A DNA stretch of 64,000 bases from a virus (IMGVR_UViG_3300021090_000015:1782-65781), one strand, 5' to 3'. Counted from the stretch's first letter, positions 6,235-58,872 are shown. Translations and numbers: made by a program. Notes: generated by a model not told the origin, from the sequence alone.

Positions 6235-7101
6235 TTATGCGAGGGCGTCGAAGAAATCTACTTCATGAACAATGACGATCTGTTTTCCCTGCTGGCGAAG
6301 TTGGATCACTTTTTCAATTTTACGACCGTAGCATGAATATGCCCAACATGGATTTCCTTGAGAACCAACCACAAGGTAGTTTAGGCGAGGTGACACATCT
6401 CGAACAACTTTCGCTCCGCGATCCAATACCATGATCTGCATCTCTTCACGGGTGGCGCGTTCTGATTCGCCGGTGAAACAGAATCGTTGATCTTCAAAAA
6501 CGATCTCAGGCGCTACTGCACAAATCCCAACCAGAGGTTTTATCTCTGCTGATGGAGAAGCGACACTTAAACTACCGGTAGTAAATCCGCCGAAAAATTC
6601 AAGTAGTGCTTTTTGTTCCTTGGGATCGATCCAATTATCTTTTAGAGCCGAAGTGATTAGGCTATCGACCTCATCATAGGGCCAGCATTTGCGAAGATGA
6701 TCATTATCGGCGATCCAGGATGAGAGCTTTTCAACTTCTTCTTCGGTGATCACGCTATCTGCAGCGATAGCGCCCAGGATGCCCTGCAAACGTTGGATGT
6801 CTGCTGTGACCTGGTTGTAATATTCCGTCGATCGCAATTTCTCGCAAAGCCAAGTGAGATCTTCATGCTCTTCATCCGATAAAACGCCATCTGCCATGGC
6901 GTCGATCAGAGGCGGGACTAGCTCGTTATATGGATGCCGATTCGCAAGGCTTTTGTTTTCGTCCACCCATTTGGCAAGCAATTCCCATTCCTGGATACTG
7001 ACGGTCCGATCCGCGGCAATGCCTTCGAGAATGCCCAGTAAGGTATTGATGGCTTTATCTAGGCAGGCTTTCGTGGTGTATTGGAAATAATCTTTGGACA
7101 T
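6235..7101 (-). CDS. BRCT-domain protein with duplicated TerB-like helical N-terminus
   Basis: C-terminal FCFTG...RGA...VS..LNYLVVG...W..S.YGRKIEK...IVHE.DF is a typical BRCT; two N-terminal L.GI..AI.AD..I...E repeats. Confidence 0.8.
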   Translation of the reverse strand: MSKDYFQYTTKACLDKAINTLLGILEGIAADRTVSIQEWELLAKWVDENKSLANRHPYNELVPPLIDAMADGVLSDEEHEDLTWLCEKLRSTEYYNQVTADIQRLQGILGAIAADSVITEEEVEKLSSWIADNDHLRKCWPYDEVDSLITSALKDNWIDPKEQKALLEFFGGFTTGSLSVASPSAEIKPLVGICAVAPEIVFEDQRFCFTGESERATREEMQIMVLDRGAKVVRDVSPRLNYLVVGSQGNPCWAYSCYGRKIEKVIQLRQQGKQIVIVHEVDFFDALA

Positions 7102-7144
7102 GGCTGCACCCTTTCTCCGGTTGATGCGTCTTATATGTTGCCTC

Positions 7145-7173
7145 TTGACAGCAGTGGATAAGGCGGATAAGAT
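7145..7173 (+). promoter_or_regulatory. Sigma70-type promoter for leaderless HTH gene
   Basis: TTGACA-17-TAAGAT with ATG 6 nt later; same layout at 43489-43518. Confidence 0.65.
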
Positions 7174-7179
7174 AAGCGC

Positions 7180-7392
7180 ATGAACAAAAAGGATCTAATG
7201 ACTGTTCCAGAATTCGCCGCTGAAATAGGCATGGCGCGCAATACGGTGACTCGATGGGTGCAGGCTGGCAAGATAAAGGGCTTCAAAAAAGATCCTTTTC
7301 AAGCCAGGACCTCACCCGTTTTTATTCCACGCAGCGAACTTGAGCGAGTGAAGAAGTTGATCGAGCAGCAAGAGAAAGAGTTTGGTTCATAG
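7180..7392 (+). CDS. Excisionase-like HTH protein
   Basis: MTVPEFAAEIGMARNTVTRWVQAGKI; points toward att; close homolog 43526..43723. Confidence 0.8.
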   Translation: MNKKDLMTVPEFAAEIGMARNTVTRWVQAGKIKGFKKDPFQARTSPVFIPRSELERVKKLIEQQEKEFGS

Positions 7393-7413
7393 CGCTGGCC
7401 ATTAAAAAGCAGA

Positions 7414-7437
7414 GCGCCTGCTCTAGCAAGCAGGCGC
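7414..7437 (-). terminator. Terminator hairpin downstream of the tRNA fragment
   Basis: GCGCCTGCT-6-AGCAGGCGC with A-tract to its left; covarying copy GCGCCCGCT/AGCGGGCGC at 44224-44248. Confidence 0.6.
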
Positions 7438-7508
7438 CCGAGCAATGGCTGGGTGTAAGGTAATCGCAGTACCTTAACAACTGAATAGTTCAGTAATTTC
7501 CCAGACAA

Positions 7509-7557
7509 AGCGGGTGATGGGACTCGAACCCACGATATCTTGCTTGGGAAGCAAGCG
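7509..7557 (-). tRNA. 3' half of tRNA-Gly(CCC) = att core at A/B junction (not a complete tRNA)
   Basis: Minus strand CG-CTTGC-TTCCCAA-GCAAG-ATATC-GTGGG-TTCGAGT-CCCAT-CACCCGC-T; no 5' acceptor strand nearby. Confidence 0.85.
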
Positions 7558-7627
7558 TTCTGGCGTTCATCCATCAACTTGAGAACAATTTATTCCCAAG
7601 TTAATCTGTGAGAATTATACCCTTCAA

Positions 7628-8476
7628 TCAGACATGCGGCGCAGGATTTTCACCCAACAAATGATCGACAATCAGGTACTTTCTGACCTGTTCAAGCCGG
7701 AGTGTGCGGGTGTAGCGCTTGATCATGTCGGAGGATTTCCAACGTCCCATTTCCATCAGGCTGCGCTCGGATGCCCCATTCAGGACACCCATGACTGCCA
7801 TGGATCGGCGCAGATCGTGGACGGATAGCGTGATGCCGATCCTCCAACCCCATTCGCGAACAATCGAATACAAGCCCTCGGGAGTCAGTCCCTGGCCGGT
7901 CCTGATGTGTGTGAACAGGAAGCCCTGCCCATCGGCGATCCTGCGGAAGGACATCCAACGTGCGATGTGAGCGGCGGTTTGTTCGCCGAAGATGGCAGCC
8001 TCCCACTGGCCGCCCTTGACGATGACTTGCAGGATACGACGCTCCAGATCCGTGTCGGCTTGTTGCAGCCTACAGATTTCCGATTCACGCAGTCCGGTAT
8101 CGAGGGCGAGTGAACAGATGGCGAGGTCGCGGGCGCCCTTGGGATCATAGGGGTCGAAGGATGCCAATAGTTTGAGAGCGATTTCGGGGGAGAGCGAACG
8201 CTGCGGTTTTCCCTGAATGCGTTTGATTTTGGCGGTGAGCGCCGGATGAGAGCGTCCATATTTCCAGGCAAGATATTTTTGTGTGGCTGCCAGTGCGAGA
8301 CACTGGCGCGCATTCCCCCACCCGCTTTGATCCAATATTTTCAATAATTCCGGAGCCGTCATGTTGACCAGATCCTGGCTCCTGGTCAACACGCGGCTCA
8401 GGATGTCCTGATACGTCCGCCTGGTAGAGGCGGCATAAGGGAAGGATGCAAGGAAGTTCGATAGATCGATTTTCAT
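7628..8476 (-). CDS. int: Phage tyrosine integrase
   Basis: TGLRESE, VKGG, HDLRR, MGRW, RYT catalytic residues; adjacent to att. Confidence 0.9.
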   Translation of the reverse strand: MKIDLSNFLASFPYAASTRRTYQDILSRVLTRSQDLVNMTAPELLKILDQSGWGNARQCLALAATQKYLAWKYGRSHPALTAKIKRIQGKPQRSLSPEIALKLLASFDPYDPKGARDLAICSLALDTGLRESEICRLQQADTDLERRILQVIVKGGQWEAAIFGEQTAAHIARWMSFRRIADGQGFLFTHIRTGQGLTPEGLYSIVREWGWRIGITLSVHDLRRSMAVMGVLNGASERSLMEMGRWKSSDMIKRYTRTLRLEQVRKYLIVDHLLGENPAPHV

Positions 8477-8581
8477 GTTTCACCTGGAATTTGGATGGGC
8501 ATAGCCAGGCTCGGTGTCCCCCGAGTCTGTGTGCATCCCGACGCGATTTGCTGAGAACAGATCATGCGGGATTTCAAAAAA

Positions 8582-8634
8582 GCAACCGCCCTGCTGGTGG
8601 AGATCAACCACGAAGACCCCAGCAGAGCAGTTGC
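8582..8634 (+). ncRNA. Candidate structured RNA, copy 1 (stem with GGAGATCAACCACGAAGACC loop)
   Basis: Long stem around a 20-nt loop identical in copies at 9104 and 45390. Confidence 0.55.
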
Positions 8635-8902
8635 AATCTGATTTTACATGATTTGCCGCTTTGCGCAAATCAGGAAAGGAGATCAGCCATAGCGATGTTT
8701 CAAACCAGCCAACAAAAAAGAATGAATGTGGGCGCGGCTGTTGTTGTTGTCGCCAGTCCCTATTATGCAATCCCAGACGGTGCACGAACAACCATCGAAG
8801 CCATAAAGCTTCATCATTTCGGCCCAGGGTTGCATTTGTATATTCTGTCCAATCTGCCCTGCAAGGCTTTTTTAGAATTTGAAATCGAAGAGGAGATCAA
8901 CC

Positions 8903-9100
8903 ATGCCATTCAAGCAGAAAAGTGACGGTTCGTACGAATCAGATCCAAAGGGGACGCTCAAACTGCCGCCCGGTGATTCGCTGACCAGGGAACGGCCGGC
9001 AGTGGAATATTCGAACAACGATCTATACAAAGGGTCGTTCCCACTCAAATCGGACGGTTCGGTCGATTGGCAGAAAATCGCCGACGAGAAGAGCAAGTGA
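8903..9100 (+). CDS. Hypothetical early protein
   Basis: RBS AGGAGATCAACC-ATG. Confidence 0.6.
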   Translation: MPFKQKSDGSYESDPKGTLKLPPGDSLTRERPAVEYSNNDLYKGSFPLKSDGSVDWQKIADEKSK

Positions 9101-9103
9101 GTT

Positions 9104-9164
9104 AATTGCCACCGCCCCACTCAAGGAGATCAACCACGAAGACCAGGGTGGAGCGGTGACAATT
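9104..9164 (+). ncRNA. Candidate structured RNA, copy 2
   Basis: AATTG-C-CACCGC-C-CCAC / GTGG-A-GCGGTG-A-CAATT stem around the same loop. Confidence 0.55.
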
Positions 9165-9196
9165 TTATTTTACGATGAAAGGAGATCAACTACAAG

Positions 9197-9415
9197 ATGG
9201 CAAACCAGTATTGGTTCCAGGTTCGATTGACGCCAATGGGAAAGCACTATGTGGAGATCATGGATGGCTTCACACTCGTTGGTGTTAGTCGAAAAACTTA
9301 TCCGAGCGGCGAAGCTGCAATCCATGACATGCAGGAAGCGCTCGAACTTCGCAGGCTGGCTGATGCGATCATCCAGGTCGATCCGCCAGCCTTTACACAT
9401 TCAGTGCAGGTATAG
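9197..9415 (+). CDS. Hypothetical early protein
   Basis: RBS AGGAGATCAAC; 72 aa. Confidence 0.55.
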   Translation: MANQYWFQVRLTPMGKHYVEIMDGFTLVGVSRKTYPSGEAAIHDMQEALELRRLADAIIQVDPPAFTHSVQV

Positions 9416-9432
9416 AAAAAGGAGAAACCACA

Positions 9433-10353
9433 ATGAGTAACAAAAACAAATTTCTTGCAATGGGCGCGTTCTATCTTCTGATCGGCGTGCTCCTGTTCTA
9501 TGCGGCAAGCCGGACCCTGCATTTTGTGCAGGGTGTGATGGCAAATTCAACCTGGGGATATCTCTTTCTCTTCGCGACCGGCGTCGGTGCAGTGATCTGG
9601 TTGTATGTGTATCTCACGTATGCCCAGGGCGCGAAGCAGCGAGGCATCTCATTTGTGATGGGATTGCTCGATCTGATTGGAGAGCTGGCGCTGGTATACG
9701 CAGACACGATCTATGTCGGTGACCAGGCCGGACTGGTGAAGATGACCAGCGATGAAATGCAATTGTTCATCGTGGTGAGTGTGGTCATGGTCGGCGTCAA
9801 CATCTTCGCCGGATATCTTTTCAAATTGTGGGACCTGAAAGCTGAGCAGGATCAACAAGCGCAGGACCTGGTTGATCATGTAACCGATGCGACGATGAAG
9901 CATTTGAACACGCCGGAAGTTAAAGCGCAGATGGTGAATGAGCTGCTACCCGTTTTGAAGGACTCGATCTCATTGCGTGTGCAGGAAGAGATCTTCTCGC
10001 GTGCAAGCGGCGGGCGCGGACTCGATGCGCGGTCGATGGGCTGGCCGGTGGATGAAAAGCCAATCGAGAAGAAAGAGCAGGAAGTGCCTTTTTTATCGAG
10101 CCTGGCACAGCGTTTTGGATTGGCGAAAAAAGATCAGGTGCCGCAGATGAATCACCAGGTGGCATGGATCGTCAGGCAGGATGGCAAACGCCATCGCATC
10201 TTCTGCATGATCTGCCAGCGCGAGGGAAAGCCGTGGTTCACCGACGAGCCATGCGAGCACGTTTTGAACGCAGATCCGGAACCGGCCACGATCGAGATGC
10301 TGGCAACTGGTTTAAGGGACGCTTTCAGGGGCTCAGAAGAAAAAAGCTCGTGA
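9433..10353 (+). CDS. Multi-pass membrane early protein (homolog 47143..48075)
   Basis: About 4 TM segments, then a soluble domain with C-x2-C motif; strongly similar to the unit C copy. Confidence 0.75.
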   Translation: MSNKNKFLAMGAFYLLIGVLLFYAASRTLHFVQGVMANSTWGYLFLFATGVGAVIWLYVYLTYAQGAKQRGISFVMGLLDLIGELALVYADTIYVGDQAGLVKMTSDEMQLFIVVSVVMVGVNIFAGYLFKLWDLKAEQDQQAQDLVDHVTDATMKHLNTPEVKAQMVNELLPVLKDSISLRVQEEIFSRASGGRGLDARSMGWPVDEKPIEKKEQEVPFLSSLAQRFGLAKKDQVPQMNHQVAWIVRQDGKRHRIFCMICQREGKPWFTDEPCEHVLNADPEPATIEMLATGLRDAFRGSEEKSS

Positions 10354-10463
10354 AGAATTGCCATGTTTGCGGCGAAAAATTCACCACCACCTTCCCCAAT
10401 AAGCTCACGTGCTGTGATGCGTGCCGGCAGAAAAAGAGCCGGATGTCACGGAACGTGCTGTGA
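10350..10463 (+). CDS. Small Cys-rich protein (homolog 48072..48185)
   Basis: GTG overlaps upstream stop; CHVC..F.TTFP.K.TC. Confidence 0.5.
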   Translation: MKNCHVCGEKFTTTFPNKLTCCDACRQKKSRMSRNVL

Positions 10464-10519
10464 CATTTACCGTTCCGCGTGGGTACACGCCCACCCGGAA
10501 AGGTAAATCAGGAGAACAA

Positions 10520-11299
10520 ATGCACAGTAGTCAATTCGAAAATCCCCTTAGTTTATTGAGGCAGTTGAAAGGTGCTCCGATCTCTGTCCTTTTGGCTTGT
10601 TACTGGGTTCGCCAAGCCGTCTCCCATCACTGGCTGGCGGAGCAGACTGGATACAGTGATTATGCAGTTACCAGGGCGCTTGCTTATTTGACAGAGCAAA
10701 ATTTCTTAGCACGTGTCACCGGTGGGTGGATGATCACGGTAGATGCCATTCAATTGCCACTAATGGCGGTGCTTCCTACTGGGGAAGATTTCGACAGTCT
10801 TGGATCGAAAATCGCGTTTTCCGCGATTTTCGATCCTGATGTTGTTGTTAATGATGAATCAGAAGAGAGTCAAAAAAATAAGTCAACATCATTAACAAAC
10901 AGAGCCAAAAATCGCGTAAAACGCGATTTTCAAAACAAGATTGTATCCGTTCAGACCATCGTGAAGGATCCGGACGAGACCAAGGCGTGCCTGGCGGCGC
11001 TGCGTGCGGCGGGGATCCATGGTCAGAAGGCTGAGAAGATCGCCCAGGACCATCACATCACGGTCGAGGATATCCATGCGCATGCGCTGGGTGTGCAAAA
11101 TGAGTTATGGGATAACCCGCAGGGCATGATGATCTATCGGCTGCTCAATCACGTACCGCCGCCCGAGATGCAGGAGAATGGTCACGTAGTGGGGTGCAGG
11201 TGCGAAGAGTGTCAGCTTTCGAGTTTGGGCAGGCGCTATAGCAACAGTAAGTTTGATCAGATTCTGCGCGGGTCAGACGATGAAAGCGAGGAAGCATGA
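10520..11299 (+). CDS. Putative replication initiator (N-terminal wHTH)
   Basis: HTH-like N-terminus, internal palindromic repeats, C-terminal ENGH..C.CE.C shared with 48684..49652. Confidence 0.6.
   Translation: MHSSQFENPLSLLRQLKGAPISVLLACYWVRQAVSHHWLAEQTGYSDYAVTRALAYLTEQNFLARVTGGWMITVDAIQLPLMAVLPTGEDFDSLGSKIAFSAIFDPDVVVNDESEESQKNKSTSLTNRAKNRVKRDFQNKIVSVQTIVKDPDETKACLAALRAAGIHGQKAEKIAQDHHITVEDIHAHALGVQNELWDNPQGMMIYRLLNHVPPPEMQENGHVVGCRCEECQLSSLGRRYSNSKFDQILRGSDDESEEA
10802..10930. repeat. Putative origin: two AAAATCGCG palindromes flanking an AT-rich inverted repeat
   Basis: GGATCGAAAATCGCG-5-CGCGATTTTCGATCC and AAAATCGCGT-3-ACGCGATTTT inside the rep-like gene. Confidence 0.55.
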
Positions 11300-11688
11300 A
11301 AAAAGTAACTCTGTTTTTGCTCGTGTTGATCGTGACGAGTCTGGCGTGTTTGACGACTGCAGAGCCGATGGCGACGTATCCTCCGGATCCGACAGAAGTG
11401 ATATCACTGCATCCGAAGATAGCGGACACTGCGACGAGTCGTCCGGTGACGGAGATGGCCGTCACGCCGGCGCCGGTTTGTGCGGTGGTGATCGCGGTCA
11501 AAGCTGTGCACCTGCGCATCGATGCGAATGAGCATGCGCAAATTTTGACCTGGCTGCTGAGTGGGGATGTGGTGCGGGTGATCAACACGTCGAATGCGGC
11601 CTGGTGGAAGATCGAACACGATGGATTGACCGGATATGTACGGTCGATGTATCTCGAGAAAGGAGATTGCGAAAATGAAAACCCGTAG
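11296..11688 (+). CDS. SH3b-domain lipoprotein (homolog 48264..48653)
   Basis: Signal peptide ending LAC; C-terminal LR...I...L..GD.V.V...WW.I...G..GYVRSMYL. Confidence 0.75.
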   Translation: MKKVTLFLLVLIVTSLACLTTAEPMATYPPDPTEVISLHPKIADTATSRPVTEMAVTPAPVCAVVIAVKAVHLRIDANEHAQILTWLLSGDVVRVINTSNAAWWKIEHDGLTGYVRSMYLEKGDCENENP

Positions 11689-11899
11689 TGTGGTGCTCAC
11701 GCGTGCTCACCGCCTGGCGAAGAGGCCGGTGGAGGATATGCTGAGCATCTTATTGAGTTTCGGATCACGCATAGACTTGCGTGTGCTGGGGGCAGGGCTG
11801 GCGATCTGCAGGACGCGAGGGGCGAAGGCGAAGGCGAGGATACTGGCGCGCAAGATCAGGCAGATGAGGCAGCAGGCCAGTAAGCATGAAAAGCGATAG
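11675..11899 (+). CDS. Basic hypothetical protein (homolog 50032..50283)
   Basis: RAHRLA..P...DLRVLGAG.AICR shared. Confidence 0.65.
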   Translation: MKTRSVVLTRAHRLAKRPVEDMLSILLSFGSRIDLRVLGAGLAICRTRGAKAKARILARKIRQMRQQASKHEKR

Positions 11900-11939
11900 G
11901 TAAAAGTTTCACGAAGAAAAAATCAGGAAAGAGGACAGC

Positions 11940-12116
11940 ATGTTTAGAAAAATATTTGACTTCAATCAAACCATCAGGAACATTTCCTTCCGGGAAATGC
12001 AGGCACGCCTTGACAGGGATCGGCGACAGTCGGATCGGTTCTTCAAAGTTTTGCTTTGGGTGGCCGTGTATGGAATGGCTGCCCTGGTCGTTGCCAGATT
12101 GCTGATGAGCAGATAA
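11940..12116 (+). CDS. Small protein with C-terminal TM helix
   Basis: 58 aa, GAGG RBS. Confidence 0.45.
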   Translation: MFRKIFDFNQTIRNISFREMQARLDRDRRQSDRFFKVLLWVAVYGMAALVVARLLMSR

Positions 12117-22275: not shown

Positions 22276-22399
22276 TTGACAATTCCCTTTATGGGGCTAT
22301 AATCTGAAACGTTCTACAACTGATCGCACTCCTGGCGCAGGCCGGGAGACTTGTTGGAGTGATGCGCCCGACGACTCAAATGAGTCGTCGGGCGTTTTT
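22276..22399 (+). promoter_or_regulatory. Promoter, structured leader and terminator (copy 2)
   Basis: TTGACA-16-TATAAT; GCGCCCGACGACTCA-AA-TGAGTCGTCGGGCGT-TTTT. Confidence 0.75.
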
Positions 22400-45301: not shown

Positions 45302-45389
45302 TTTTCCTCACGTTTGAAAATGGCATAACCAGGCGCGGATAGCCCCCGAGCCTGTTTTGCGAACCCCGCGGCCTGCGCGGGTATCAGTA

Positions 45390-45440
45390 CAACGACTCTG
45401 CTGTAGGAGATCAACCACGAAGACCCCAGCAGAGCCGTTG
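45390..45440 (+). ncRNA. Candidate structured RNA, copy 3
   Basis: CAACG-A-CTCTGCTG / CAGCAGAG-C-CGTTG around GGAGATCAACCACGAAGACC. Confidence 0.55.
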
Positions 45441-45474
45441 CAAAAATAATTTTACTACAAGGAGACCAACCAAA

Positions 45475-45981
45475 ATGCTTACAAAAAAAGAACGATCAAA
45501 AGAAGAGTCAGACGCTCTCATTAGAGCTCTGGCTTGGAACGATGGGTTCGGCTGCTACACGCGCGCAGGGTTTGAAAAAATGATCTGGACGGAGATCGCA
45601 GAGAAGGCGCGATACATCGTGTATTTCGATGTCGATGATGTGCACGCGCTGAATGAGAAGTTCGGCAGTTATGACCCCGTGGACGCAATGATCAAGCAGG
45701 CGCTTGCCGTTGTGCGATTGACCGATTACGTGGCGGGTCAGTGGAAAAGTGGTGACGAATTCCTGGTCTGCTTGACAGAGGAAGCACAACCATCCGATTC
45801 GCTGCGTACGGAGATCGATCCGCTGGCGATGGTGAACCGGCTGGAGGATGCGTTGAAGCGGCAGGGGTTATCGGCGACGTTCGCGGTCGTGCCAGTCACA
45901 TCGCACGATCTTCGCGCAGCGATGAAGCCAGCGGTGGATATGGTGTACCAGGAGAAAAAGCAGAGGGGAGATCGGCGATGA
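45475..45981 (+). CDS. Stand-alone GGDEF-like protein (SGDEF motif)
   Basis: ND.FG..TR.GF, YFDVD...LNE..G...D, SGDEF. Confidence 0.75.
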   Translation: MLTKKERSKEESDALIRALAWNDGFGCYTRAGFEKMIWTEIAEKARYIVYFDVDDVHALNEKFGSYDPVDAMIKQALAVVRLTDYVAGQWKSGDEFLVCLTEEAQPSDSLRTEIDPLAMVNRLEDALKRQGLSATFAVVPVTSHDLRAAMKPAVDMVYQEKKQRGDRR

Positions 45982-46277: not shown

Positions 46278-46418
46278 AAGGAGGTGATGTCTGAAAGATG
46301 ATTGATAAAAAAACCTCGCGATGTTGCAACATCGCGAGGAGTGATCGGGGCGCAAGGAGTACCACCAAGTAGACCAGCGCCCCTTTCGAAAATATTTTAC
46401 ACCAAAAAGGAGACCACC

Positions 46419-47094
46419 ATGAAAAAACATTTGATCGATCCGGATGCTGCAAAGGCGCACGGGATAGCGTTGGACGAACGGGGCTGGCCCACGACCAACA
46501 GCTTACAGGAATGGCACGCAAAAAATAACCCGCAATTTTTTACAAAGGAAGAGAAAAAAGAGAAACCTGAGTTCTCGATTCCGTTGTGGATTATCCCGTT
46601 GCTGCCAATTGTAGTCCTTGTCATCCTGATCCTGAAATAGGACAGATGAAACATCATACCAGTCTGGCTGATCGTCCGTGATGACGGTCAGCCAGAATAG
46701 GAAACCATTCCATGAATGACGACACTCCCCAAAAACAACAATTCAATGTCAGCAGCGATGATGACGGGCTCAACATCGATATCTCGTTCCCGATCCAATG
46801 GCTTTACCTGCTGATCCCTATTGCCATCATCGTCGTCGCCTATTTCGTATTCAAGTAGATCAATACAGGAGTACCACCATGAAAAACAAATTAACCATGG
46901 TTATCTTGACCATCCTGACGATCACCGGATTGGTTTTGATCATCCCCTCTGCCATACAGTGGCAGGCGTTATTGATCCAGGCGGGACTTGGTAACTCTGC
47001 CCCACTCGCATCCGGAGTCCTGCAAATGGCTGGCGGAATGATCTGCCTTGCCATTGTATGGGGCATTGTGCGACCCACACAGAACAACGTGTAA
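46419..47094 (+). CDS. Three small membrane ORFs (46419-46640, 46712-46858, 46879-47094)
   Basis: Each has an RBS and hydrophobic segment(s). Confidence 0.5.
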
Positions 47095-48683: not shown

Positions 48684-49652
48684 ATGCAACATCAGTTACT
48701 CATACAATCCCTGAAAGAGAGTAGGGCACAAATTCTGCTGGCGTTTCTTTTCGCCGGTCATGCGATGGACGTGGAAGAGCTGATGACCTGGACGGGTATG
48801 GCACGCACACCCCATTATCACCATCTGGCGGCGCTTTGCGCTGCAGGGTTTCTGGCAAAGCAGACTCTCTCTCATGGTCGGCATGTCTATCTGCTTGGAT
48901 CCGAAATGCTCCCGGTTTTGCAGGCATGGGTCGCTCAGATTGGCGCAGGTACTCCGAAGTTGGAAGGTGGGGCGCTCATGATCCAGGAGTCATCTAAGAT
49001 GACATCTGGCGATGATCTTATTATTATTAACCCTCCTCAGCTCAATATAAAAGACTCTAGTGTTAATAATAATAATAAGGCGCAGGAGTCATCTAAGATG
49101 ACTCCTGCCGATTTTGCCGCCTTGCTGGAAGCGCTGGCAAAACATAAGATCGTCGGCAAAAAGAAGGACGAGCTGATTGGCTGTGAATGGGTGACGGCGG
49201 GATATGTCCATGCTTCGATTGAGTTTGCCATCGCTGAAGGTCACGGAAAATACAGCGTGGGCATCGCGATCAACCGGATGCTTGAAATGATGGAACAACC
49301 AGCGCGCGGGGAGAACGGTCACATTGAGAATTGCCAGTGTGAGCAGTGCTCCGATGATGTCGGTGTTTCCGAACCCAGCGGGGCAGGTTATTCAGGTGGG
49401 ATGTTTGCAGAATATTTCAATCAAGCACCGACATCTCTAGGCTGTGTTTGGCAGGATGATGACGAGCAGACTTTCAAGTCTGGACATCCATTTGAGGGAC
49501 AACATCGAAAGCAGCCCGCCTGCAAGAAACCACTTAAATCAGGATCACATCATTGGTGCGAAGAGCATTATCAGATCGGGGTCGAAACCTATGGGACAGG
49601 ACAGATCCCAGGTGCAGACTCCGAAGATGAAGAACAAGGAGATCAACCATGA
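48684..49652 (+). CDS. Putative replication initiator
   Basis: HTH-like N-terminus; internal palindromes; ENGH..CQCEQC. Confidence 0.6.
   Translation: MQHQLLIQSLKESRAQILLAFLFAGHAMDVEELMTWTGMARTPHYHHLAALCAAGFLAKQTLSHGRHVYLLGSEMLPVLQAWVAQIGAGTPKLEGGALMIQESSKMTSGDDLIIINPPQLNIKDSSVNNNNKAQESSKMTPADFAALLEALAKHKIVGKKKDELIGCEWVTAGYVHASIEFAIAEGHGKYSVGIAINRMLEMMEQPARGENGHIENCQCEQCSDDVGVSEPSGAGYSGGMFAEYFNQAPTSLGCVWQDDDEQTFKSGHPFEGQHRKQPACKKPLKSGSHHWCEEHYQIGVETYGTGQIPGADSEDEEQGDQP
48984..49107. repeat. Putative origin: two CAGGAGTCATCTAAGATGAC repeats flanking an AT-rich inverted repeat
   Basis: Second copy is the perfect palindrome CAGGAGTCATCT-A-AGATGACTCCTG. Confidence 0.55.
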
Positions 49653-50035
49653 GCGATATCAAAGTCAACGGCGTGACCTATCGCCAGCGGACGCGCAAAT
49701 GCGGCAACAAGAAATGCAAATGTGCGACGGGCGAGGAACATGGTCCCTATTGGTATGCATTTAGCGACGGCGGGACGGCAAAGTACATCGGTCTGGAATT
49801 GCCGAAGGAAATCACAGACCATCTGGCGAAGCTAAAAGCCAGTGGGGGAAAGATCAAGAAACTTCGCGAGCAGATATCGAAGCAGCAGGCGAATTTCTAC
49901 GAGAAATATATCGAGGCACAACGACAATTAGGCGCGCTGCGACAGCTTGAAGCCGGGGACTATGTGGGTGCGCAGGTGTTGGCGGATCTCGGGCTCAAGG
50001 ATCTTGTTTTCTTGGGTCCGCGATCGGGAAAGTGA
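49649..50035 (+). CDS. DUF6788-like zinc-binding protein
   Basis: RKCG..KCKC..G..HGPYWY. Confidence 0.65.
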   Translation: MSDIKVNGVTYRQRTRKCGNKKCKCATGEEHGPYWYAFSDGGTAKYIGLELPKEITDHLAKLKASGGKIKKLREQISKQQANFYEKYIEAQRQLGALRQLEAGDYVGAQVLADLGLKDLVFLGPRSGK

Positions 50036-58742: not shown

Positions 58743-58872
58743 TTGACTCCCCACCCCTTACGCTTATAATCCCATTAATCGAACAACAAAGGCAGTCCTG
58801 GTTTTAGATCGGGACGCATTATGTCGGAGGATGCCGCCCGACGACTCTCTCAATGAGTCGTCGGGTTTTTTT
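58743..58872 (+). promoter_or_regulatory. Promoter, structured leader and terminator (copy 4)
   Basis: TTGACT-16-TATAAT; CCCGACGACTC..GAGTCGTCGGG-T7. Confidence 0.7.

Follow-up and report, generated by a model that had tools for sequence, protein, structure and literature searches.

A conserved hairpin at the integrase and early-gene junction of Chloroflexota phages, with a loop matched to early-gene ribosome-binding sites and a possible antisense role

The stretch of viral DNA considered here (IMGVR_UViG_3300021090_000015:1782-65781, 64,000 nucleotides (nt), called the window below) is part of a 67.7-kb viral record and holds two related prophage-like units, A and B, side by side, each of which opens with a small tyrosine integrase gene (int) on the minus strand, followed by plus-strand early genes without assigned function. 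Of particular interest is a long hairpin, H1, at the junction between integrase and early genes, which recurs in relatives of this phage, folds in the sense of the integrase message and carries in its loop the complement of the ribosome-binding site (RBS) of neighbouring early genes. Sequence comparison establishes that the element exists, on which strand and into what structure it folds, that its place beside int is fixed and that loop and RBS co-vary; a structured RNA of integrase sense very probably sits at the start of the int message. We consider it somewhat probable that H1 is an antisense RNA that blocks early-gene translation in these Chloroflexota phages, a proposal in which the promoter, the RNA ends, pairing in vivo and the repressive effect are what we infer. 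The four copies of H1 in the window, with their matches to R1, the covariance model described below, and the two integrase genes are as follows.

7628..8476, minus strand: integrase of unit A, 282 amino acids (aa), Pfam Phage_integrase, E 3.8e-22; downstream of hairpin unit 1 on the same strand
8582..8634, minus strand: H1 of hairpin unit 1, stem of ~18 base pairs (bp) with G.U wobbles; R1 match 8576-8655, 86 bits
9106..9162, minus strand: H1 of hairpin unit 2, an orphan copy between plus-strand genes; R1 match 9102-9181, 74.3 bits
44435..45301, minus strand: integrase of unit B, 288 aa, 71% identity to the unit A integrase
45390..45440, minus strand: H1 of hairpin unit 3, upstream of the unit B integrase; R1 match 45383-45463, 83.8 bits
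46347..46383, minus strand: H1 of hairpin unit 4, diverged, stem GGGGCGC/GCGCCCC; R1 match 46347-46408, 40.1 bits, E 6e-6

The most conspicuous sign of the element is a 20-mer, GGAGATCAACCACGAAGACC, found exactly at 8599, 9125 and 45406 on the plus strand, where dinucleotide shuffles give an expectation of 0.00; no further copy with up to three mismatches occurs in the window. Every copy forms the top of a long hairpin whose stem differs in sequence from one copy to the next, and ATTTTAC stands 5-9 nt past each hairpin in plus sense (8641-8647, 9167-9173 and 45449-45455). An initial annotation, made from the sequence alone, had reported just this pattern of one loop in three hairpins of differing stems, each followed by ATTTTAC, and the exact matches bear it out. 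It had missed the base pairing of the first two with the last two letters of the loop, and also a fourth, diverged unit at 46347-46408, whose loop is GGAGTACCACCAAGTAGACC. On the minus strand the 20 nt at the apex of H1 read GGUCUUCGUGGUUGAUCUCC and are complementary to the RBS word. The junctions of integrase and early genes in units A and B have a shared layout and different stems.

Exact 20-mer scans of genome contigs and of viral contigs gave no matches, and relatives were therefore fetched through the integrase, which provided integrase-linked loci on 6 and then 27 viral contigs, plus 69 metagenome contigs; a blastn comparison of 7000-12000 with deposited phages found no similar DNA. Among public sequencing runs a search turned up six DNA runs of sediment or freshwater metagenomes, two of them a possible source, and no RNA run. 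In almost all of the fetched loci a hairpin of this kind precedes int, and ATTTTAC or a one-letter variant of it comes after, in the plus sense of the window. The covariance model R1, built from 39 distinct units (alignment A3), matches the window exactly four times, always on the minus strand, and the relatives 77 times (52 distinct sequences), always on the integrase strand, with the complete relatives of 37-40 kb holding one or two copies each, only at the place upstream of int. Three loci from Chloroflexota metagenome-assembled genomes, with more distant integrases (40-59% identity), gave no match to R1.

RNAalifold finds compensatory changes in 15 of the 17 pairs. Across the 52 distinct sequences paired cells amount to 95.5%, against 70.8% in shuffles and ~37% with slid partners, and double-change cells number 219 against 62, counts to be read with the caveat that the alignment in question (A4) was fitted to the model; the sequences are related, and counts over the family are not independent events. 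The common architecture consists of a stem of ~15-18 bp, two inner G-C pairs, a UCU/UCU internal loop, a helix of 2-3 bp and a GUGGUW loop (GUGGUU type), with a conserved apical part of 16-20 nt in which the second and nineteenth loop letters covary as an inner pair (CG 20, GC 17 across the family). The int-proximal units of relatives L005 (3016 region, the same as L026:2325-2404) and L006 (4031 region) keep stem and heptamer and have unrelated loops without evident RBS match; the orphan units of L005/L026 and L006 retain the family loop. Rfam at its gathering threshold gave no match over the whole 64 kb, and at E<=10 over 8450-9250 it gave only PtaRNA1 at 13.6 bits, an unrelated chance match. 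The comparison with known, unrelated families that the initial annotation had proposed thus came out clear, and R1 is the de novo covariance model that it had also proposed. Scans for tRNA and tmRNA found none.

The strand on which H1 folds is indicated by its wobble pairs. In 39 distinct hairpins there are 91 G.U pairs in the minus-sense folds against 8 in the plus-sense folds, and the stems as read on the plus strand show recurrent C.A and A.C mismatches, which are the same G.U wobbles seen from the other side. The minus-sense fold is the stabler one in 48 of 57 family hairpins, compared with 31 of 81 unrelated control hairpins from the same loci, and the window agrees (minus against plus, in kcal/mol: unit 1, -36.6 and -26.4; unit 2, -34.1 and -25.6; unit 3, -32.4 and -21.1). 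An 11-fold wobble bias goes beyond strand-symmetric mutation, and the selected folded molecule therefore has integrase sense; since the minus strand is the folded one, the loop is an anti-RBS: it complements the RBS and does not mimic it.

The initial annotation had read the hairpin the other way, as a plus-strand mimic of the RBS, and had offered three functions for it: decoy or operator of a GGA-binding regulator, site of antitermination, or ribosome-sensing attenuator with a short open reading frame starting at ACG. The plus-strand loop does equal the RBS word, and the plus strand could still form a hairpin, of -21 to -26 kcal/mol, but its stems tolerate A.C mismatches where G.U is kept on the minus strand, and the wobble counts and fold preferences given above argue against a mimic or decoy. 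GGA is not conserved, GGAG being GCAG in about half of the family, because that G or C is one side of the covarying inner pair. The short reading frame crosses the variable stem and is likewise not conserved, its ACG being AAG, AGA, ACA or ATA in relatives; and for an antitermination site there is no nut, put or other Rfam match, the wobble selection lying on the opposite strand. We regard the plus-strand mimic, in all three forms, as disfavoured and highly improbable. What survives of the more general claim, that this is an RNA-based element for early-gene control, is the tie to early-gene RBSs, and what falls is the folded strand and the specific mechanisms; a correct pattern read on the wrong strand inverts the mechanism, here between mimic and antisense.

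That tie is apparent already within the window. The 12-mer of the loop, at up to one mismatch, matches 8 times against 0.42 expected, always on the plus strand, and the five matches outside the loops (8678, 8892, 9181, 45461 and 49638) each extend to a start codon or stop just short of one. The initial annotation had noted that the loop words also stand before real ATG starts at 8903 and 49649 (GGAGATCAACC) and at 46419 (GGAGACCACC), and the sequence confirms it. The RBS regions are these.

8678..8697, plus strand: RBS region of the first early gene, GGAGATCAGCCA...ATG; 11/12 to the loop word, the one difference wobble-compatible; predicted H1 target
8892..8905, plus strand: RBS region of the second early gene, GGAGATCAACC-ATG; 12/12; predicted target in trans
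9181..9199, plus strand: RBS region of the 9197-9415 gene; 11/12, the C/T difference wobble-compatible; predicted target
45461..45478, plus strand: RBS region of the first early gene of unit B; 11/12
46409..46421, plus strand: RBS region of the 46419-46640 gene, GGAGACCACC-ATG; matches the diverged loop of unit 4
49638..49651, plus strand: distant RBS region, that of the DUF6788 gene, GGAGATCAACC-ATG; 12/12; possible target in trans

Across the family the loop follows the RBS beside it. The mean run score of a loop with its own neighbour RBS is 9.08, compared with 6.73 for permuted partners (standard deviation 0.22), and none of 2000 permutations reaches 9.08; predicted loop-RBS duplexes average -20.7 kcal/mol, against -16.7 for permuted pairs (standard deviation 0.49) and -8.5 for a same-sense control. 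Within 260 nt, 33 of the 39 loops have a match reaching as far as a start codon. The loop variants GATCTACC, GATCCACC, GATCGACC and GATCTGCC recur identically in the paired RBS, in many independent cases, and the variants T, C, G, TG, CTACGACA, CCTATCACA, GCCTATCAA and GTAACCACCA are each mirrored there as well. Where loop and RBS do differ inside the match, nine differences are wobble-compatible transitions and two are incompatible, a small sample from related sequences; mismatch types in the 3-nt flanks of the match are uninformative. The RBS lies 0-240 nt beyond the heptamer, on the side far from H1, and H1 does not overlap its target. At the position in the loop that corresponds to the start codon, in plus sense, only one of 52 loops has ATG, where 8.8 would be expected, and ACG, AAG, AGA, ACA or ATA is seen instead; this hints that transcription of the plus strand, too, crosses H1 and that an ATG there would do harm. 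The RBS word of the first early gene is GGAGATCAGCCA in the window and GGAGATCAACCA in L010, a near-identical contig from the same habitat, one letter apart; the window's variant still permits a U.G wobble with the loop.

The resemblance of loop and RBS words, alike within one phage and common to its units, could also be that of direct repeats bound by a single phage DNA-binding protein, a repressor or replication protein, with the inverted repeat extruding as a cruciform or single-stranded hairpin. Palindromes that abut the heptamer in some units would fit such a DNA-level element. It leaves unexplained, however, the 91:8 strand bias of the wobbles, the covarying inner pairs of the loop, the avoidance of ATG and the 9:2 preference for wobble-compatible differences, and searches with Pfam and PHROGs found no helix-turn-helix protein adjoining the hairpin units. 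We would put little weight on it.

The heptamer itself, GTAAAAT in minus sense, lies 0-10 nt upstream of the hairpin base and is the most conserved feature of the region. It is found in all four units.

8641..8647, minus strand: GTAAAAT of unit 1, 6 nt upstream of H1
9167..9173, minus strand: heptamer of unit 2; a promoter scan gives TTGATC-16-TAAAAT, with a -35-like word that is antisense to the adjacent RBS
45449..45455, minus strand: GTAAAAT of unit 3, from the sequence
46394..46400, minus strand: GTAAAAT of unit 4, from the sequence

In the 52 distinct relatives the heptamer is near-invariant, and only the third position of its hexamer varies (TAAAAT, TACAAT, TAGAAT). This is the way a -10 hexamer varies, and by its sequence the heptamer would be a near-consensus -10-like box. 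The late promoters of the phage are canonical (TTGACA-17-TATAAT), and for that reason the host polymerase should be able to read TAAAAT. In the late-gene units at 22280-22310 and 58745-58775 (plus strand) the promoter leads into a conserved, structured leader and then a terminator; these units calibrate the promoter type of the host. A relaxed sigma-70 scan finds integrase-strand sites, mostly at the heptamer, in 24 of the 39 units, compared with scattered plus-strand sites in 6 of 39. On the early-gene side a short, phage-specific hairpin or palindrome abuts the heptamer at the position of a -35 (8648-8677 in the window, and in L013, L021, L024, L042 and L046); it may be an operator for a regulator, or part of an RNA.

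The same succession of parts invites comparison with the PeSLs of T4-type phages, in which a short repeated stem-loop, a promoter-like box and a Shine-Dalgarno (SD) sequence precede unrelated small early genes (Arbiol et al. 2010; PMC2839356). The H1 units share the layout of stem-loop, box and SD. A portable terminator-promoter cassette of that type on the plus strand would have H1 ending upstream transcription and ATTTTAC belonging to the promoter of the next gene, with the likeness of loop and RBS a by-product of duplication. The plus-strand order of stop codon, stem-loop, AT-rich word, SD and start, as in the T4-type PeSLs (PMC2839356), speaks for it, as does the standing of the units before unrelated genes. 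In the PeSLs, however, the sigma-70 promoter is complete and shares the strand of its gene, and the stem-loop is a terminator, whereas the H1 units have a -10-like box and wobbles on the opposite strand and a loop matched to the RBS. The complete same-strand sigma-70 promoter typical of PeSLs was not found for the H1 units, the plus-strand sites of the relaxed scan being inconsistent and none lying in the window regions; the T run stands 5-9 nt from the stem; and loop and RBS have changed together in many independent lineages. A cassette of this kind is in our judgement improbable.

With H1 as an RNA of integrase sense, its downstream surroundings become those of a leader and, in places, of a terminated transcript, for which the window provides the following.

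8496..8519, minus strand: H3 of unit A, in the int leader, ~20 nt upstream of the int RBS; compensatory changes in relatives
8576..8581, minus strand: U6 tract directly after H1 of unit 1, from the sequence
45330..45354, minus strand: H3 of unit B, in the int leader, from the sequence
46307..46339, minus strand: intrinsic terminator closing unit 4, an 11-bp GC-rich stem with T7, by terminator scan and fold

In most int-proximal copies H1 is followed by a variable hairpin, H2, then the conserved hairpin H3, and then the AGGTGA-ATG of int. H3 is the second covarying hairpin (CAGGC.CGG/CCGAG.CTG) of the initial annotation, which was right about its presence; it occurs in units 1 and 3 only and is conserved in relatives. 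Its G.U pairs number 30 in integrase-sense against 6 in plus-sense folds. H2 (for example L022:2420-2450) lacks a wobble bias towards the integrase sense (33 G.U pairs there, 45 in plus sense), is slightly stabler in plus sense, and may act on the plus strand or as DNA. In three relatives (L024:163-260, L028:2420-2515 and L046:2418-2515) the ATG of int follows ~9 nt after H1 (UAUAAAAA-AUG) without an SD, while most relatives have AGGTGA; there is no room for another promoter in these three, so that H1 must belong to the int message there, and the arrangement suggests SD-independent initiation or an integrase translation gated by H1.

U tracts after H1 on the minus strand occur only in some units (unit 1, L006 and L073), with U5-U6 right after H1 in the orphan copies of L006. 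By its sequence H1 of unit 1 together with its U6 resembles an attenuator or intrinsic terminator placed before int, and unit 4, closed by a terminator, looks like a stand-alone RNA gene of ~90 nt. As a class, H1 was considered and rejected as an intrinsic terminator, given the conserved 16-20-nt apical part, the minus-strand U tract in some units only and the plus-strand T run 5-9 nt away.

These features of the leader are what chiefly recommends the explanation that we rank second, in which H1 is mainly a cis-acting 5' leader of int, as a stabilising hairpin, an attenuator (H1 and its U tract) or a translation gate (with the ATG ~9 nt off), and in which early mRNA pairs with the int leader to control the integrase, or convergent transcripts interfere, rather than H1 repressing in trans. 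H1 always lies upstream of int on the same strand, reaching the int ATG in the three relatives just mentioned; the U6 tract follows H1 in unit 1; and H3 shares the integrase-sense bias. Against this stand the orphan copies without an int downstream (units 2 and 4, and copies in L006, L025 and L026), one of them with its own terminator, and the exact RBS matches at genes 0.3-3 kb away. We take a purely cis-acting leader to be possible and rather unlikely.

In the antisense mechanism that we prefer, each unit would be a small transcription unit on the integrase strand, with GTAAAAT as a -10-like box and H1 as the 5' end of the RNA. From the copy adjacent to int the RNA would run through two more hairpins into int, or stop at H1 and its U tract; from the orphan copies it would end at a terminator, giving a free RNA of ~60-90 nt. 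The 3' half of the apical part (UGGUUGAUCUCC here) would pair with the region from SD to start codon of the adjacent, oppositely oriented early gene, and with those of a few others, the exposed apical loop nucleating the pairing, which would block binding of the 30S subunit and perhaps trigger cleavage. Transcription on the integrase side, the lysogenic side, would thereby restrain translation of the first early genes.

Several observations weigh against this mechanism. Ahead of the heptamer there is no enrichment for a -35 box (2.49 matches, where shifted positions give 2.2-2.6), so that the promoter would have to be one with only a -10 or one dependent on an activator, or the heptamer is something else; a need for an activator would not be odd for an integrase promoter. 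The plus-strand early promoter was not located, either in the promoter and terminator scans of the window or in the relaxed scan of 39 units, and an early mRNA may, for that matter, carry the complement of H1. In 11 units a small hairpin just upstream of the heptamer has 16 G.U pairs in integrase sense against 2, a count confounded by the G/U-rich flanks, and integrase-sense transcripts could start farther upstream. A clear RBS match was not found within 260 nt for 6 of the 39 units, and about half of the family loops have CUGC instead of CUCC, giving a mismatch to the second G of GGAG and leaving the pairing mostly on the spacer. Within the window, finally, unit-specific matching is seen for unit 4 only, because the loops and RBSs of one phage are nearly alike.

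A few enterobacterial phages (P1, P7, P4 and P22) provide the textbook examples of antisense RNAs that turn off early or antirepressor genes. The c4 RNA is encoded on the strand of its target and cut from the same transcript, and sar overlaps its target site, so that complementarity comes free. Outside the phages, the RNA-OUT of IS10/Tn10 folds into one long, imperfectly paired hairpin; pairing with the 5' end and RBS of the message transcribed towards it begins in the loop, and the two promoters face each other. RNA-OUT has full complementarity to its overlapping target and regulates a transposase. The c4 RNA of the immI region of P1 and P7 is a small structured RNA whose loops pair with the RBS region of a gene in the early/antirepressor operon and block its translation, with specificity that differs among related phages through matched changes in RNA and target (PMC12197685). 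H1 likewise has a loop complementary to the RBS region of its proposed target; it differs in lying on the strand opposite that target, starting a putative transcript of its own and doubling as the int leader, and it has no match in sequence or structure to the Rfam family C4, which includes c4 of P1/P7 and the P4 CI antisense RNA. The 68/69-nt sar RNA of P22, also of an immI region and involved in the control of ant, comes from a promoter against the early/antirepressor transcript, pairs with the ant RBS region and is needed for proper lysogeny (PMC12197685). H1, in contrast, does not overlap its target, and the separate anti-RBS copy in its loop must co-evolve with that target. RNA-OUT is comparable to H1 as a single long hairpin with an anti-RBS loop against an opposing message, except that H1 is proposed to act on early genes of the phage, with the recombinase encoded downstream of the presumed antisense RNA. 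By analogy, then, H1 would act like c4, sar and RNA-OUT and yet belong with none of them.

To our knowledge, almost nothing is known of how temperate phages of uncultured phyla choose between lysis and lysogeny. Pfam and PHROGs searches of the small early genes identified no cI-like protein, and no repressor can be named in this phage. A much more ambitious proposal, which we consider doubtful, is that the hairpin RNA is the determinant of immunity and of the lysis-lysogeny choice in place of a protein repressor, the 5' hairpin of int and the orphan copies silencing the first early genes in trans, those of superinfecting relatives included, with a specificity that resides in the co-evolving pair of loop and RBS and is copied as a module before unrelated genes. 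What is new in the element is a covariation-backed RNA family of 52 sequences at the integrase and early-gene junction of Chloroflexota phages; a presumed antisense RNA that does not overlap its target and bears a co-evolving anti-RBS copy in its loop; and a principal copy that is the leader of the int message, which would couple integration directly to early-gene silencing. R1 is ready for use in annotating such phages, and the matched pairs of loop and RBS would form a natural set of orthogonal RNA switches.

Some further roles for the repeated words were tried and rejected. TTGATC of the loop as the -35 of a promoter after H1 is opposed by loop variation and by a spacing of 18-19 nt; TTGCAA, at the base of the stem, lacks the following -10 that a plus-strand -35 would need; and the loop does not fit the consensus for an IHF site. 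A role as attP or attC would leave the RBS match unexplained. Integron attC sites are made of R''/L''-L'/R' boxes with a 3' GTTRRRY and extrahelical bases and are recognised by IntI; the stems here, judged by eye, end in GTTGCAA or GTTGTAC, not GTTRRRY, and the neighbouring recombinase is the 282-aa phage integrase.

Three of the genes that follow the RBS words have these positions.

8903-9100, plus strand: second early gene of unit A
9197-9415, plus strand: gene after hairpin unit 2
46419-46640, plus strand: gene beside hairpin unit 4

Among the small early genes, Pfam and PHROGs assigned no function, the only matches being DUF6788, an SH3 domain, and weak GGDEF-like and MarR-like ones. The DUF6788 gene (49649-50035, plus strand) stands 3 kb from the nearest hairpin unit with a perfect loop RBS word right before its ATG. 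The frame that opens with the ATG at 8695 runs to 8925 on the plus strand and overlaps the start of the second early gene by 23 nt; a TAG comes after the RBS word in front of it, and 13 nt separate the GGAG from the ATG, which looks like the trace of an earlier start since lost. The first early gene of unit B (45475-45981, plus strand, 168 aa) has a weak GGDEF or nucleotidyl-cyclase-like match (Pfam E 6e-4; function unknown in PHROGs) and a homologue in L004, and is kept as an early gene among the relatives. Unit B seems to run on beyond the end of the window and from its start.

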